DNA of 64,000 bases from contig DATIII010000008.1 of NCBI GenBank assembly GCA_035479795.1, positions 94,487 to 158,486 of the forward strand, read 5' to 3'. The DNA comes from Candidatus Saccharimonadales bacterium. GTDB taxonomy: Bacteria > Patescibacteriota > Saccharimonadia > UBA4664 > SCTI01. Positions 1,292 through 59,406 of the stretch are shown here, one piece after another. Under the pieces are notes generated by a model. It made no database searches. It worked only from the letters and a program-made list of their open reading frames with translations, and was not told where the DNA came from. The stretch's first letter is position 1; each line of letters opens with the position of its first letter. Made by a program: the position numbers and the translations under genes.

Positions 1292-1849
1292 TTAACGATC
1301 CTTCTTTTTGGCCAGCAGTACCCATTCCCGGCGCTCGATATAGGAGTTCGGGAAGATATGCAGGTAACCCTTTTCATCTCGCACCCGTGTGCGCCGCATG
1401 TCCATGGCCTCCACCACGCCTTCGACGCCCGGCTGACCCGGCTCTTCGGCCACCCGCACAACATCACCAACGCTAAAGTCATGGTCTTTCGCCAGGAAAA
1501 TACCGGCCAGAATGTCTTGAACAATTGTTACTGAGCCATTACCCAAGGCTAGGCCAATGGCAGCCACGGCAGCCGAGAAGGCAAATGCAACATTACTGAG
1601 CCCTAGAGCCTGTAGGGTCACAATCGTCAAGAAGACTGATAGCAAGATATCGATCAGCGAAACAATAATGCCGCGCAGGCCCTTAGGCATGCGAATGAAG
1701 GACAGCAGCCAGCTGGCAATCCAAGACAGGATTCTGATGACGACTAAGCCGACCAGCAGGGTGGCAGCCGCCGTCGGCAGCTTAGGCAAGAGATCATTGA
1801 TATTTTGGGCTAGGGAATCAAATAGATGGGATGGCGAAGTATCAATCAT
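1292..1849 (-). CDS. mechanosensitive ion channel, MscS family (small)
   Basis: TM helices followed by a beta-rich domain (…VGDVVRV…GVVEAMDMRRTRVRDEKGYLHIFPNS…) characteristic of MscS. Confidence 0.75.
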   Translation of the reverse strand: MIDTSPSHLFDSLAQNINDLLPKLPTAAATLLVGLVVIRILSWIASWLLSFIRMPKGLRGIIVSLIDILLSVFLTIVTLQALGLSNVAFAFSAAVAAIGLALGNGSVTIVQDILAGIFLAKDHDFSVGDVVRVAEEPGQPGVEGVVEAMDMRRTRVRDEKGYLHIFPNSYIERREWVLLAKKKDR

Positions 1850-1852
1850 ACA

Positions 1853-1888
1853 TAACAGGATACAGGATACAGGATTGAGGATACAGAC
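1853..1888. repeat. heptanucleotide tandem repeat (GGATACA-like x3-4) in the 39-bp gap between the mscS start and the gatB stop
   Basis: Direct reading: acaggatacaggatacaggattgaggatacagac. Confidence 0.6.
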
Positions 1889-3334
1889 TTACTTCTTAAG
1901 CTTATCCTTAAGAATCTCATTCACCATCGGCGGGTTGGCCTGACCTTTAGATAGTTTCATTACCTGGCCAACTAAGAATCCAAGGGCCTTGGCCTCACCT
2001 TTTTGGTAATCCGCTACCGGTTTTGGATTATCTTTAATCACTTGATCCGTCCAGGCTTCTAGCTCGCCCGCATCAGATTGCTGCAACAGGCCCTCACGCT
2101 CCGCCACATGATGCGCACCTTCATCGTTTTCCCAGAGCATAGCAAGCAAAGCTTTGGAATTTGTAGAACTTAGCTTGCCGGCCGCTACCATTTCACCCAC
2201 CGCTGCCACGGTCAGCGAGGACACGTCGGATTCTCTCAGTGACTTGCCCTTGGCCTCAGCCAGACGTAGCATGTCGCCTACCAACCAGTTAAAGGCAAAC
2301 TTGGCCTGCTCGGGGTTTTCAATGTTTAACTGCAGCCAAAGTTCCGCGGCTTCAATGTTTGCCACCAGAGTTTCAACCTCCCGGCCAGAAATGCCAGCAC
2401 CAGCCAGCTCCTGCCGGAGCTCCATTGGCATCTTTTCTGGCATCCCATTACTAGCAACCTTTAACATGTCACTTGTCACCTGTACGGGCGGCAAATCCGG
2501 CTCGGGGAAATAGCGGTAATCATGCGCCTCCTCCTTCGTCCGCTGGCTGAACGTCTCGCCCTTACTTTCATCCCAACCCCGTGTTTCCTGAACCACCTTT
2601 TCACCGGCGTCGAGAATCTCCGCCTGGCGCTTCATCTCATACTCGACCACTCCGGCCACTGCACGGAATGAATTAAGATTTTTACTCTCAGTCCGTGTTC
2701 CGAATTCCTTCTGCCCCGCTAGTCGCAACGACACGTTTACATCAAACCGCATGTTGCCGTAGTACAGGTCACAGTCACTGACTCCGGCATAGCGCATTAA
2801 GTGATACAGTTCCTCGGCATAAGCTTTAGCCTCGGCCGCACTGCGCATATCCGGCTCGCTGACAATCTCGAGAAGCGGTGTGCCGGCTCGGTTAAGGTCG
2901 ACCAGTGAATAATCTTTGCCAGCCGGATGAGTCAGCTTGCCGGCATCAGCCTCGAGATGGGCTCGAGTGATACCGACTCGCTTAGTCTCACCCTCGAATG
3001 GAAACTCCACAAACCCATTGCCAATAATCGGCTCGTCGAACTGAGTGATCTGATAACCACTGGGGCTGTCCGGGTAAAAGTAATTTTTGCGATCAAACTT
3101 GGTATGAAATTCCAACATATCCGAGTAGGCGTTGAGCGCCAAACCGGCCTTTAGTGCCAGCTCCACCGCCGCCTTGTTCAGTACCGGCAGCGCGCCGGGC
3201 AGAGCAATACAAACCGGGCAGACATGGGCGTTTGGCTTGGCCTCACGGCTGTCATTATTACAGCCACAAAACAGCTTCGACTTTGTCGCTAGCTGCACAT
3301 GGGTCTCAATACCAATTACGACTTCGTATTTCAT
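1889..3334 (-). CDS. gatB: Asp-tRNA(Asn)/Glu-tRNA(Gln) amidotransferase subunit B
   Basis: N-terminus MKYEVVIGIETHVQL…CGC and a C-terminal GatB/YqeY domain; 481 aa. Confidence 0.95.
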   Translation of the reverse strand: MKYEVVIGIETHVQLATKSKLFCGCNNDSREAKPNAHVCPVCIALPGALPVLNKAAVELALKAGLALNAYSDMLEFHTKFDRKNYFYPDSPSGYQITQFDEPIIGNGFVEFPFEGETKRVGITRAHLEADAGKLTHPAGKDYSLVDLNRAGTPLLEIVSEPDMRSAAEAKAYAEELYHLMRYAGVSDCDLYYGNMRFDVNVSLRLAGQKEFGTRTESKNLNSFRAVAGVVEYEMKRQAEILDAGEKVVQETRGWDESKGETFSQRTKEEAHDYRYFPEPDLPPVQVTSDMLKVASNGMPEKMPMELRQELAGAGISGREVETLVANIEAAELWLQLNIENPEQAKFAFNWLVGDMLRLAEAKGKSLRESDVSSLTVAAVGEMVAAGKLSSTNSKALLAMLWENDEGAHHVAEREGLLQQSDAGELEAWTDQVIKDNPKPVADYQKGEAKALGFLVGQVMKLSKGQANPPMVNEILKDKLKK

Positions 3335-35938: not shown

Positions 35939-37930
35939 CTAGCGCTTTGTGTTTCGAGCGGCTTTTTGGGCTTCCTTTATCTCCTCAATCTGATCGCGCA
36001 GGGCGGCGGCCTTTTCGAACTGGAGATTTTCGGCAGCCAACTCCATCTGCTTGGTCAGCTCACTAACCAAATGCTTGCGCTCATCTTTAGGAATGTCGTC
36101 AATCTTAAATTCCTTAACATCGGCGGTTTCGGCCGCCTGCTCCGAACGCATCCGCTCGGCCAGGGCCTTCTTGATGCCAGCCGGGGTAATGCCGTGCTCA
36201 TTATTGTAGACCTCCTGCAGGGTTCGGCGCTTCTCAGTGGTTTCAATGGCTGCCTGCATTGAACGCGTACGGTTATCGGCGTACATTATAACTCGTCCCT
36301 CCACATGGCGAGCCGCTCGGCCAATAGTTTGAATGAGAGCCGATTCACTGCGCAAAAAGCCCTCCTTATCAGCATCCAGAATCGCCACCAAGCTGACTTC
36401 CGGCAGGTCCAACCCCTCTCGCAGCAGGTTGATGCCGACAACTACATCGTAAACTCCCGATCGGAGATCATGTAGAATATCGACCCGTTCCAGAGTGTCA
36501 ATCTCGGAATGCAAATATTGCACCTTGATGCCTAGCTCCGCCAGGTATTCCGATAAGTCTTCAGCCATGCGTTTGGTAAGAGTCGTAACCAGTACCCGCT
36601 GGCCCTTTTTGACCGTTTCACGGATCTCACTAATGAGATCGTCCACCTGATGGTTTGTCGGGCGCACTTCAATCTGGGGGTCCAGCAGGCCGGTTGGCCT
36701 AATCACCTGTTGCGCCACCTGGCTCGATCGCTTCACCTCCCATTCGGCCGGAGTCGCCGAAACATAGATGGCTTGGTTGATATGGCGTTCGAATTCATCA
36801 AACTTCAATGGCCGGTTATCGAGCGCCGAAGGCAGACGGAAACCGTACTCCACCAGCGTTTCTTTACGTGCCCGGTCGCCATTAAACATCCCCCGCACCT
36901 GCGGAATCGTCATATGGCTTTCGTCGACAAAAAGCAGAAAATCATCTGGGAAATAGTCCAATAAAGTGGCTGGCTGCTCCCCCGGCTCGCGGTTACTTAG
37001 ATACCTGGAATAATTTTCAATGCCGGGTACGAAGCCAGTTTGCTCCATCATTTCAAGGTCAAAATTAGTGCGTTGCTTGAGCCGCTGGGCTTCAAGTAGT
37101 TTATTTTCAGATGCAAGCTGAGCGAGACGAGTTTCGAGATCCACTTTGATCTCCCCAACGGCCTTCATCAACTTTTGATGCGGAGTCACGAAGTGCTTTC
37201 CAGGAAAGATTCTCAAGTTCTGCCGTTCGTTCAAAACCTCACCCGTCAACGGTTCCACCTGTCGAATCCGTTCTACCTCATCGCCAAAAAACTCGATGCG
37301 ATAAGCAACTTCTTCGCCGACCGGAAAAACTTCAACCGTATCGCCACGCACCCGGAAGGTGCCACGGGTGAAGGCAATGTCATTACGGCTGTATTGAATG
37401 TCCGTCAGTAGCCGCAGCAATTTATCCCGTTTGCGCTTCTCACCTTGCTTCACCTCAACCGTCATGGATGTGTAATCTTCCACATTTCCGAGACCATAAA
37501 TACAGCTCACCGAAGCCACAATCAGCACATCTTTACGGGTCAGCAGGCTCATGGTGGCAGCATGCCGCAACCGGTCTATTTCTTCATTAATGGCGCTGTC
37601 TTTTTCGATAAAAGTGTCGCTGCGCGGAATGTAGGCCTCAGGTTGGTAGTAATCGTAGTAACTAACAAAGTACTGGACGGCGTTATCGGGGAAAAACTGC
37701 CGAAATTCGCCGTAGAGCTGGGCTGCTAAAGTCTTGTTGTGGCAAAGAATCAAGGTTGGCTTTTGGACGTTTTGAACAACATTGGCCATGGTAAAGGTCT
37801 TACCGGAACCGGTCACGCCCAGAAGCGTTTGCTCCTTATCGCCCCGCACCAAACCTCCCGAAAGCTGTTTAATTGCTCTCGGCTGATCTCCCGCCGGCTG
37901 ATACTGACTGCTTATCTTAAAATTAGCCAT
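35939..37930 (-). CDS. uvrB: excinuclease ABC subunit B
   Basis: 663 aa with helicase motifs (GVTGSGKT…), beta-hairpin region and a C-terminal UvrC-binding coiled coil. Confidence 0.95.
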
Positions 37931-47182: not shown

Positions 47183-47241
47183 TTACAGTACTCCCAAAAC
47201 GATATGACGGTAGAGAGGAATTAACGCCGCAGATAGCGCCG

Positions 47242-48372: not shown

Positions 48373-49002
48373 CTATTCGTTGGCGGTGAAATTGAAGCTA
48401 GCTGGAATGGGATTTGGCAGTTCGGACTCGGTGCCATAGGTCAGAACGATTTCCTGATGAGCTTCCAGCTTTAACTGGCGCGGATCACCGGTATACTCAT
48501 GACCGTTTACATAAACTCGCACTCTGCTATCATCCTTCGAGCCGTAACCACCTAGATGATCTTTATCAAATTTCACGCCCCAGATATCCATAAACTGGCC
48601 AAAGTAAAAATCCTGCTTCTTCGGCGACTCAACATGGATAACTCCGCGCGTGTCATGGGTATGTAGCTCGGTTATAAAACCTGCGGCCTCGTTGATGCCA
48701 ATCTCGGGAACAACCTCGACGGCCTTACCATGCACAAAAATATCCAGGTGCTGGTGAATATGGAAATCGACAGCTTCTTGCGGTAGAGCCGGCATACCAA
48801 TCTTATCCAAGCGTTCTTTTAGCTTGTCAGTATTCTTGGGCCATGGCGCTTCTGAGGTTAACAGGCCGGGCAAACCGTCTGACGTGGCACTGGGCTTAAC
48901 TGACTGATCGGGGGACTTATCGGAATTGCCGCCCAACATGAAAACGCCAACTAGGCCGGCAACGACCAGTGCCAAGACAATCCACAATCCGTACTTCCTC
49001 AT
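48373..49002 (-). CDS. secreted His-rich protein, hypothetical
   Basis: N-terminal TM/signal segment; HIHQH and HTHDTRGVIH motifs; overlaps the ppa start. Confidence 0.45.
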   Translation of the reverse strand: MRKYGLWIVLALVVAGLVGVFMLGGNSDKSPDQSVKPSATSDGLPGLLTSEAPWPKNTDKLKERLDKIGMPALPQEAVDFHIHQHLDIFVHGKAVEVVPEIGINEAAGFITELHTHDTRGVIHVESPKKQDFYFGQFMDIWGVKFDKDHLGGYGSKDDSRVRVYVNGHEYTGDPRQLKLEAHQEIVLTYGTESELPNPIPASFNFTANE

Positions 49003-49526
49003 TTGGCGGCCCTGGCAATCGATTCTTTAATAACCTGCTTGGCCTCGGCCGCATCCCCCCAGCCCAAAACCTTGGTTGAGCCTTGCTGCTTTAAATCCTT
49101 GTAGTGATTAAAGTGGTGCTCAATCTTTTGCTTCCAAGCAGGGTGTAAATCATCCATCGACTGGATCGTGTCACCGACATTGCGGTCATCCAGTGGTACG
49201 CAAATAATCTTATGGTCGGCGTCACCACCGTCATCAAAATTCATAATGCCGAGCACCTTGGCCTGCAGATAAACTCCCGTAGGCAAAGGCTCGTTGGTGA
49301 TAATCAGGGCGTCGAGCTCGTCTCCGTCGTCGTCCAGAGTACGCGGAATAAAACCGTAATTGACCGGCTTGGCAAAGATACTCGGCTCCACCCGATCAAG
49401 CTCAAAACAGGCCAGCTCACGGTTCCACTCGATCTTCAGTGTCGACCATTTAGGGATCTCCACCACCGTATTGATGATGCCGTTTTGGTAATCTCCAGCG
49501 TCTAATATTTTGTTAAAATCAGGCAT
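48999..49526 (-). CDS. ppa: inorganic pyrophosphatase (family I)
   Basis: …EIPKWS…DGDELDALI…DDGGDADHKII…; 175 aa. Confidence 0.9.
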   Translation of the reverse strand: MPDFNKILDAGDYQNGIINTVVEIPKWSTLKIEWNRELACFELDRVEPSIFAKPVNYGFIPRTLDDDGDELDALIITNEPLPTGVYLQAKVLGIMNFDDGGDADHKIICVPLDDRNVGDTIQSMDDLHPAWKQKIEHHFNHYKDLKQQGSTKVLGWGDAAEAKQVIKESIARAAK

Positions 49527-49534
49527 TCCTTCTC

Positions 49535-49960
49535 CTATTCCGTCACCGTTACCGTGGCGTGCATGGACGACATCGAGGCATGTGGTACACAGTAATATTT
49601 GTAAGTCCCAGCCGTATCAAAGCTAAAGCTGTAAGTCTCACCCTTACCGAGCAGTGGGCTGCTTAATCCCTTCTGGGGCGAATCATCCTCGCTGACGATA
49701 TCGTGCCGTACGCTGTCTTGGTTAGTCCACGTTACCCTAGTACCCTTTTTAACCGTTAGAGTTTGGGGCATGAAGGTAAAGTTTTCTATGCTAACCGCCT
49801 GAGCAGTGGCGGATGGAGACTGGCTTTGCTCGGCTTTTTGACTTTTCTGGCTGGAGTTACCAGCTGTGCTAGAAGGACTTTGAGCCGGACGCGCCAACAT
49901 CATAAAGGCCACAAAACCAATAACTACGACTCCAATAACTCCGATTATCCAATTCCGCAT
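49535..49960 (-). CDS. cupredoxin (type-1 copper, plastocyanin/amicyanin-like)
   Basis: Signal/TM N-terminus, His ligand …VRHDIV… and C-terminal YYCVPHASM (C-x2-H-x2-M). Confidence 0.7.
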   Translation of the reverse strand: MRNWIIGVIGVVVIGFVAFMMLARPAQSPSSTAGNSSQKSQKAEQSQSPSATAQAVSIENFTFMPQTLTVKKGTRVTWTNQDSVRHDIVSEDDSPQKGLSSPLLGKGETYSFSFDTAGTYKYYCVPHASMSSMHATVTVTE

Positions 49961-49973
49961 AGTTTCTCCTTAT

Positions 49974-50008
49974 TTCGACTTTCGACTTTCGACTTTCGAC
50001 TTTCGACT
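49974..50008. repeat. perfect heptanucleotide tandem repeat (TTCGACT)x5, equal to (AGTCGAA)x5 in the cupredoxin sense, between a TATAAT-like box and the AAGGAG RBS
   Basis: Direct reading: tat ttcgact ttcgact ttcgact ttcgact ttcgact tataat. Confidence 0.9.
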
Positions 50009-50049
50009 TATAATATTGTACCTTGGCAGCGCCAAAATCCAAGCTCTAG

Positions 50050-50988
50050 CTACTTTGCCACGTGATGAGGTGCCAGATAGTGACGGATTGATAAGGCCGC
50101 ACTGACCCCTTCACCGACGGCGCTGGCAATCTGCCCAATACTGCCAGCACAGACGTCCCCGGCGGCGTAGACTCCTGGTAGTGATGTGGCGAAGTCGTTG
50201 CCCACCTTCACCAGCCCTCTCTTATCGAGCTCGACGGCTCCGCCCAGCCAGCCGGTGTTGGGTAGCAGACCCACGAACACGAATACCCCATCAGTTTCGA
50301 GCTGACCCTTTGCCTTCGTGGCGTTATCAACCGTTTCCACACCCGACACTTTATGCCCTTCGGCCAATATTTTAGTAATCGAAGTATTGAATTTAACTTC
50401 TACATTGGGCAGTTTCTGAATCTGTTCAACCAGCACCTCGGCGCCCCGAAATTCACTGCCTCTCACGAGCATGGTAATGTGGCTGGCGAACTTAGCCAAA
50501 AACAATGTTTCTTGGAGAGCGGTGTTACCGCCTCCCACCGTTACCAGGCGCTTGCCCCGGTAGAGCGGACCATCACAGGTGGCGCAGTAATGCACCCCCC
50601 GTCCGCCGAGTTCCGTCTCGCCGGGCACTTCTAGGTGCTTGTAAGATGAGCCGGTGGCGATCAAAACGCTCTTGGCCAGGACGGGATCGCTATTAGTTTT
50701 TAAGGTTAACAGCTCATCGGAACGTTCAAGGCCGGCAACATCAACTCCAGTGCGAATTTCGGCTCCGAAACGTTCGGCCTGTTTGCGCATCAAATCGGAA
50801 AGTTCCAGGCCGCCGATGCCCTCTGGGAAACCCGGATAATTATCGACGATTTCGGTGGTGGCAATCAGACCACCAATCACACCATGATCAAGTACCACCG
50901 TTTCGAGGTCTTCGCGGGTGGTATACACGGCCGCGGACAGTCCGGTGGGGCCAGCGCCGACAACGGCTACATCGTAGATCTTGGCCAT
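50050..50988 (-). CDS. trxB: thioredoxin-disulfide reductase
   Basis: GAGPTG FAD motif and CATCDG redox centre; 312 aa. Confidence 0.9.
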   Translation of the reverse strand: MAKIYDVAVVGAGPTGLSAAVYTTREDLETVVLDHGVIGGLIATTEIVDNYPGFPEGIGGLELSDLMRKQAERFGAEIRTGVDVAGLERSDELLTLKTNSDPVLAKSVLIATGSSYKHLEVPGETELGGRGVHYCATCDGPLYRGKRLVTVGGGNTALQETLFLAKFASHITMLVRGSEFRGAEVLVEQIQKLPNVEVKFNTSITKILAEGHKVSGVETVDNATKAKGQLETDGVFVFVGLLPNTGWLGGAVELDKRGLVKVGNDFATSLPGVYAAGDVCAGSIGQIASAVGEGVSAALSIRHYLAPHHVAK

Positions 50989-58798: not shown

Positions 58799-59344
58799 TT
58801 ATAGCCTTTTGGCGTGCAAGACTGTAACTGATAAACCGAGTGTCACCAAACTCAGCAGCCAAGCCAAGGCGACCATTGTTTGTAGCTGGGCCTCGCGCTC
58901 TTCAACTTCCTTTAAACTGCGAGCCGCCAGCACAAAGCCGGGTTTTTTGCCATCGTGATGGGCAATGACCGCCGCTAACCTTACATTAGCCGTCGGCTGC
59001 CAAGTGATTCTTTCCTCTCCCACTTTGCGGGTGTTCGCAAAAACCCCGGCCGGTAGCTCCGGAGTTTTTCCGTCTAATTCGACATTTGAATCAACCACCT
59101 TGCCTTGATCATCGTAGATGATTGCAAAAGGCGTCAGACTTTTTGACGGGTCAATTTTGGGAACTTGGCCCAGTTCCACATCTGTGCCCTGAGTGATCTG
59201 ACCAGCCAAACCAATTACCATACTAGCCTGTGGGTCATTGGCATTTTGGCGATAATTCTGCTGTACCGCCGCATAGATGGTAACGAAAATGATAGTGATA
59301 ATGACGGCCTGGCCAAGCCAAAAGATAAGCTTTCGCATAAGCAT
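58799..59344 (-). CDS. membrane protein, hypothetical (TM-periplasmic domain-TM)
   Basis: 181-aa ORF. Confidence 0.45.
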   Translation of the reverse strand: MLMRKLIFWLGQAVIITIIFVTIYAAVQQNYRQNANDPQASMVIGLAGQITQGTDVELGQVPKIDPSKSLTPFAIIYDDQGKVVDSNVELDGKTPELPAGVFANTRKVGEERITWQPTANVRLAAVIAHHDGKKPGFVLAARSLKEVEEREAQLQTMVALAWLLSLVTLGLSVTVLHAKRL

Positions 59345-59406
59345 ATTGTAAATCCTTAATACTCTAATGCCTAATGCCTAAGCACAAATATTTAGGATTT
59401 TTTAGC

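Follow-up and report, generated by a model that had tools for sequence, protein, structure and literature searches.

What does a perfect array of a heptanucleotide do in the leader of a gene for a copper protein? The array in question lies on the minus strand at positions 49973..50009 of a 64-kb stretch of DNA (64,000 nt in full, hereafter the window). It is 37 nt long and reads A(AGTCGAA)5A in the sense direction (TTTCGAC ×5.3 on the plus strand). Tandem Repeats Finder gives a period of 7, 5.3 copies, 100% matches, no indels, and a score of 74, which makes the array the top-scoring repeat of the window. The sequences bordering it on its two sides are CCAAGGTACAATATTATA and TAAGGAGAAACTATGCGG, and a TaqI-type site (TCGA) is present in every unit. 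The longest perfect period-7 run found in 200 shuffles is 18 nt, as against 37 nt in the array. All matches of the two-unit 14-mer GTCGAAAGTCGAAA fall within the array, and four or more matches were obtained in none of 100 dinucleotide shuffles. The array is not a chance feature, and the original prediction of a perfect (AGTCGAA)×5 in the cupredoxin leader is confirmed to this extent. Perfect units of 1–9 nt joined head to tail far above chance, which characterize an SSR, are present here.

Next downstream of the array is the gene (49535..49960, minus strand) for a cupredoxin of the plastocyanin/azurin family (141 aa; Pfam PF00127 and PF13473). The match to PF00127 (4.7e-17) and the type-1 copper ligands His86, Cys124, His127, and Met130, which are invariant across the homologues, bear out the earlier assignment as a type-1-copper protein. 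The N terminus consists of a hydrophobic membrane anchor and a Ser/Gln-rich linker. The identical protein in NCBI is HSX41662.1, from a MAG of 'Candidatus Saccharimonadales bacterium'. An inorganic pyrophosphatase gene (48999..49526, minus strand; PF00719 at 1.2e-47) begins 8 nt past the cupredoxin stop codon, and the two genes are probably on one transcript. Upstream of the array lies trxB, a thioredoxin-reductase-like gene (50050..50988, PF07992). The cupredoxin gene had been described as divergent from trxB, but trxB runs from 50988 to 50050 on the same strand and is co-directional with it. The 89-nt spacer between the trxB TAG stop codon (50052-50050) and the cupredoxin ATG (49960) holds the array. 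The whole co-directional run comprises genes for a response-regulator receiver, a polyprenyl synthase, DUF5670, glutaredoxin, and TrxB, then the array, and then genes for the cupredoxin, the pyrophosphatase, a 209-aa protein, GAPDH, and RpiB. A terminator scan gave no terminator-like site between trxB and the array, so that transcriptional read-through from trxB is possible.

More distant homologues of the cupredoxin have another neighbor. On two Saccharimonadales-like contigs (L006, 3001-4231, and L133, 2501-4289), a cupredoxin homologue is directly followed by a Ferric_reduct (PF01794) membrane protein, suggesting that these homologues form a cupredoxin and ferric-reductase-like electron-transfer module. 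The cupredoxin gene in the window precedes the pyrophosphatase gene, not a ferric reductase gene as in these contigs.

The position of the array within the spacer should be noted. In the sense direction the spacer reads TAG(trxB stop)-ctagag-CTTGGATTTTGGCGCTGCCAAGGTACAATA-ttat-A(AGTCGAA)5A-TAAGGAGAAACT-ATG. The block CTTGGATTTTGGCGCTGCCAAGGTACAATA (50014..50043, minus strand) is conserved with the nearest relative (L004, described below) and is promoter-like, a function assigned from this conservation. It contains a palindrome, TTGGC-N3-GCCAA (50023-50035), at its sole occurrence in the window, and a −10-like hexamer, TACAAT (50020-50015). The original prediction had taken TATAAG as the −10 element; this hexamer runs two bases into the first unit, and the hexamer conserved in L004 is TACAAT. 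The array begins 5 nt past TACAAT and stops 1 nt short of a Shine-Dalgarno sequence, AAGGAG (49966..49971, minus strand; assigned from the consensus), which lies 5 nt 5' of the ATG. A simple sigma-70 consensus scan does not flag the block at 50014-50043; its conservation suggests that it may function as a promoter, with the transcription start located upstream of, or at, the beginning of the array. The array is non-coding, since the cupredoxin ATG is preceded at 12-10 nt by an in-frame TAA. A reading as an N-terminal extension or uORF was considered and rejected: this TAA is directly 5' of the ATG, and the 57-aa ORF with a TTG start across the array has no Shine-Dalgarno sequence and begins upstream of the putative −10 hexamer.

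The distance from the −10-like hexamer to the cupredoxin ATG is 54 nt in the window; it would be 19 nt with zero units and 26 nt with one. In other genes of the window, −10-like hexamers lie 21-26 nt 5' of the ATG, one example being the glutaredoxin gene with TATAAT at 22 nt, and the length of the cupredoxin leader is atypical for this genome. Genes with this 21-26-nt distance form one of two classes in the window and have very short leaders. In the other class, strong TATAAT hexamers lie just 6-9 nt 5' of the predicted ATG of several genes (for example, those with starts at 37930, 41313, 53804, and 53020), so that these mRNAs may be leaderless or the starts mis-called.

We compared the locus with its relatives. 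Among 5.8 billion proteins, the nearest relative of the cupredoxin (68% identity) is encoded on contig L004, where the synteny is the same as in the window except that trxB and the cupredoxin gene are separated by a MarR-family gene (155 aa). After the MarR stop codon, L004 has CTTGGTTTTTGGCAACGCCAAGGTACAATA, a near-match of the window block including TTGGC-N3-GCCAA and TACAAT. Only 23 nt (aagactattaaaggaagcctgct) separate TACAAT from the ATG in L004, without any repeat. In the other syntenic relative, L130 (55% identity, TrxB-cupredoxin-pyrophosphatase), TATAAT is likewise 23 nt from the ATG, and the repeat is missing. Both relatives retain the pairing of the cupredoxin and pyrophosphatase genes. 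The heptamer AAGACTA in L004 aligns with AAGTCGA in the window, and from this correspondence a heptamer native to the leader seems to have expanded in place into the array. In 80 more distant cupredoxin loci (286 kb, JGI metagenomes), neither a perfect period-7 array nor an SSR before the gene was found. Across these loci the repeat is species-specific, and its perfection suggests that it is either young or continually homogenized by slippage. The MarR gene (L004, 2480-2947) is absent from the window (50014-50049), which keeps the promoter-like block downstream of it. L004 also carries a perfect palindrome, GTTAAGC-T-GCTTAAC, immediately 5' of marR; this palindrome and TTGGC-N3-GCCAA are possible MarR operators.

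The window contains two further heptad arrays. The repeat reported earlier for the mscS leader does exist at 1855-1886, in a degenerate form with 84% matches and 4.6 copies by Tandem Repeats Finder. Read on the minus strand, the leader at 1850-1888 is CTGTATCC TCAATCC TGTATCC TGTATCC TGTTATGT-ATG. The imperfect array occupies nearly all of the 39-nt spacer from gatB (1889..3334) to the MscS-like gene (1292..1849, PF00924), a spacer with no obvious Shine-Dalgarno sequence. The third array, TTAGGCA ×2.6 in the sense direction, is perfect and lies at 59364-59381 in the 62-nt spacer of two co-directional minus-strand genes; it is 19 nt 5' of an ATG at 59344, and AAGGA is found in the intervening sequence. 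Among periods from 6 to 12, only period 7 is represented in the window by perfect arrays with 2.5 copies or more (three arrays). All three heptad arrays of the window sit just 5' of a start codon, and their heptamers are unrelated, the other two using TGTATCC and TTAGGCA.

Arrays of the same unit occur far outside this species. At least three tandem copies of AGTCGAA were found in more than 120 places in species genomes of many phyla, a count uncalibrated against control heptamers. By context, 67 are coding (51 forward and 16 reverse) and 68 are intergenic; within 100 nt of a start, the two orientations are found 9 and 10 times, respectively, showing no bias. Five CPR examples are in unrelated contexts. 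Given these heterogeneous contexts, the arrays in other phyla were rejected as evidence for a conserved element, and AGTCGAA is read as a generic slippage-prone heptamer. About half of the matches lie inside ORFs, mainly in the orientation that encodes K/S/E/R/V-rich peptides. The unit is arrayed on at least seven contigs of one cyanobacterial MAG, Hydrococcus sp. Prado102 (L021, L023, L033, L050, L056, L070, and L073). In Bacteroidota (L029, L032, L063, L066, L086, and L120), it forms long arrays, reaching 13 copies, in which the variants AGTTGAA, AGTCAAA, and AGTCGGG are often interspersed.

The copy number was examined in a second assembly of the same organism, GCA_964594805.1, whose locus (L001) was found by an exact-protein look-up. 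Of the two flanks of the array in L001, one (2805 nt) matches the window at 100% identity and the other (3475 nt) at 99.97%. The sole SNP in 6.3 kb is at window position 47235 in the intergenic spacer between the GAPDH and RpiB genes (T in the window and G in GCA_964594805.1), and it shows that the two assemblies are not one consensus. The array in L001 consists of eight units plus AGTCG, 100 N, and A plus eight units, with the scaffold gap inside the array; its edges are 62 and 58 nt long, partial bases included. We infer that these edges represent an unresolved 7-nt cycle in a de Bruijn graph of k = 55 (55+7 and 55+3; 58 is congruent to 37 modulo 7). Read in this way, the array would be at least 65 nt long, or nine units, in that data set. 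Five copies in the window thus stand against at least nine in the second assembly, and the copy number given by the original prediction holds for the former and not for the latter. A copy number that differs between near-identical genomes is another mark of an SSR, and it is seen here between two short-read assemblies.

The Logan contigs (k = 31) of SRR9179559, SRR9179560, and SRR9179562 end exactly 30 nt (k−1) inside the array on both sides, breaks that indicate only that the array in these runs is 37 nt or longer. The imperfect heptad array in the mscS leader (window 1850-1888) served as a control; it was compared among the window, GCA_964594805.1, and one Logan contig spanning it, and is identical base for base in the window, L137, and L138. 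With this control array invariant in three assemblies, the perfect array is the single place where the assemblies disagree. The five copies of the window could themselves reflect a collapse during assembly and not a true allele. Both MAGs probably derive from one sequencing project, as assemblies made by third parties. The organism was observed solely in the SRR91795xx runs and in the two NCBI MAGs, and an exact-match scan of JGI metagenomes for the right flank of the array gave zero matches. The absence of the repeat from relatives is half of what the original prediction had named as its refutation, but the other half, an invariant copy number, is not what the assemblies show. Length variation together with absence from relatives points to a young, species-specific expansion rather than to a refutation.

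We consider it rather likely that the array is a species-specific, slippage-prone microsatellite, (AGTCGAA)n, which expanded in place and alters the length of the leader, with an effect on expression that is graded or absent. The leader of the cupredoxin-pyrophosphatase unit of this uncultured bacterium of the Saccharimonadales (Saccharibacteria, CPR) would originally have been very short, one of its heptamers would have expanded in place, and the differences in length between the assemblies would have arisen by replication slippage in the living population. Each change in copy number would then lengthen or shorten, in 7-nt steps, the 5' untranslated leader, or the trxB-cupredoxin intercistronic spacer in the case of read-through. 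The consequence may be a graded effect, as with the 7-bp repeats of the hmw genes in Haemophilus influenzae, or none, and would not be ON/OFF. Transcript stability, elongation through a self-pairing tract, and ribosome standby are possible routes of a graded effect. The data fit a neutral repeat equally well. Variation of the array length is likely, and a role in regulation would be putative and probably modest.

The variation itself might be an artefact, in which case the array would have one fixed length that one or both assemblies misreport, and the repeat would be functionally inert. We regard this as unlikely. In its favor, all the sequences are short-read de Bruijn assemblies, seemingly from one project (SRR91795xx), and 37 nt equals 30+7, the shortest array that gives a cycle at k = 31. 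However, a 37-nt array joined to both of its flanks at k of about 39 or more requires such k-mers in the reads, the edges of 62 and 58 nt in GCA_964594805.1 need at least 65 nt of array, and the SNP at 47235 separates the consensus sequences of the two assemblies. Long perfect arrays are, moreover, intrinsically unstable through SSR mutation. If the variation in length is accepted, it could still act as a classical ON/OFF switch of the cupredoxin operon through altered promoter geometry, and the setting of a perfect, length-variable SSR beside a promoter-like block and before the gene for a membrane-anchored extracytoplasmic protein speaks for such a switch. We nevertheless hold the switch to be very unlikely, because the array lies outside the −35/−10 spacer (downstream of the conserved −10 hexamer), outside the spacer between the Shine-Dalgarno sequence and the ATG, and outside the reading frame, with the in-frame TAA before the ATG, and because the apparently indispensable pyrophosphatase is in the same unit. 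With this gene only 8 nt past the cupredoxin stop codon, OFF states would probably be costly, and read-through from trxB could supply transcripts in any case. Of the slipped-strand phase variation that had been proposed, the difference in length between near-identical assemblies stands, but the spacings on which ON/OFF switching would depend are unchanged by it.

Two other readings assign the function to the repeated units or to the RNA. Iterated sites for a DNA- or RNA-binding regulator, such as S1, Csp, or a CsrA-like protein of the kind proposed for the TAACTGA direct repeats, could be suspected from the position right before the Shine-Dalgarno sequence, a placement similar to theirs (PMC4679880), and from the two further heptad arrays just 5' of a Shine-Dalgarno sequence or ATG between co-directional genes. 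Direct-repeat operators or iterons are expected to be conserved or to recur at promoters. AGTCGAA outside the array, in contrast, has five one-mismatch matches in the 64-kb window as compared with 3.8 expected, which is the chance level and leaves no dispersed copies, and the array is absent in L004 and L130, which retain the promoter block. The three arrays of the window use unrelated heptamers, those of AGTCGAA in other phyla are both coding and intergenic without orientation bias, and a 7-bp period would place successive sites on different faces of the helix. We therefore find iterated regulator sites, which the original prediction had also offered, quite improbable. A structured cis-regulatory RNA in the leader, either a riboswitch or an attenuator, is largely refuted and retains hardly any probability. 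The UCGA core is self-complementary, and the ensemble energy is predicted to drop by about 2.7 kcal/mol with each extra unit. However, a search of the leader against Rfam gave no match at the gathering threshold or at E ≤ 1 save one meaningless lncRNA match, the fold of the leader is no more stable than those of dinucleotide shuffles (z = 0.35), and nothing of it is conserved in the relatives. For each of three assumed 5' ends, the predicted energy for opening the region from the Shine-Dalgarno sequence to the AUG stays the same between 3 and 25 copies. This flat opening energy speaks for a small or absent effect of structure on translation.

The microsatellite reading has a stronger form, in which the array would be a contingency-type 'rheostat': slippage would tune a surface-exposed blue-copper carrier and the co-transcribed pyrophosphatase across the population, perhaps in place of the MarR-type regulator whose gene occupies exactly this position in the nearest relative. 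We consider this form unlikely. In the candidate phyla radiation, it would be the first described system of expression variation based on an SSR. Should the variation in length be real and alter expression, ultra-small, host-dependent Saccharibacteria would share the localized-hypermutation strategy of host-adapted pathogens, hypermutation would target a redox and surface protein, and the array length in reads would be a simple population marker. If the array is neutral, it is just a young microsatellite, an ordinary finding. As a practical point, the printed copy number is untrustworthy, since tandem arrays near or above the k-mer length of the assembler collapse or break.

Several known systems can be compared with the array. 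The cyanobacterial STRR-type heptanucleotide repeats, associated with Mazel et al. (1990), reportedly form genome-wide families. They resemble the array in being tandem heptamers in non-coding DNA, whereas AGTCGAA is found at a single locus in the 64-kb window.

In Beggiatoaceae, Cyanobacteria, and Bacteroidetes, direct repeats of TAACTGA precede start codons, and a role in translation has been proposed for them (MacGregor 2015; PMC4679880). A genome has about 169 sites of this one heptamer, most of which lack a canonical ribosome-binding site (PMC4679880). The likeness is in tandem intergenic heptamers placed a few to about 13 nt 5' of a start codon. However, the AGTCGAA array is at one site of the window, where the other arrays have different heptamers, and a strong AAGGAG Shine-Dalgarno sequence stands between it and the ATG. 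The AGTCGAA array thus lacks the defining features of the TAACTGA family, namely a single heptamer recurring at numerous sites and the lack of a canonical ribosome-binding site.

The SSR contingency loci of Haemophilus, Neisseria, Campylobacter, and Mycoplasma share with our locus a perfect SSR beside a gene for an extracytoplasmic protein and a length that differs between near-identical genomes. Typical contingency SSRs lie within the reading frame or in the −35/−10 spacer and cause ON/OFF switching. The AGTCGAA array, unlike these, is in the leader, and only graded effects are expected from it. It falls under the definition of a hypermutable SSR, but not under that of a classical phase-variable contingency locus. 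A literature search gave no paper joining Saccharibacteria, phase variation, and tandem repeats.

The closest system by mode of action would be that of the hmw1A and hmw2A promoter regions of nontypeable H. influenzae, which carry 9-28 copies of 7-bp repeats, more copies generally going with less mRNA (PMC2424069). In both cases, perfect tandem heptanucleotides lie between a promoter, here one inferred from conservation, and the coding region of a surface protein, and the copy number varies among close variants; the hmw effect is graded and not ON/OFF. The array in the window differs in the sequence of its unit, in the phylum, in having housekeeping genes in the downstream unit, and in the copy numbers seen, only 5 and at least 9. 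If the analogy holds, the AGTCGAA array may act on the cupredoxin-pyrophosphatase unit by degrees, as the hmw repeats do on their genes.
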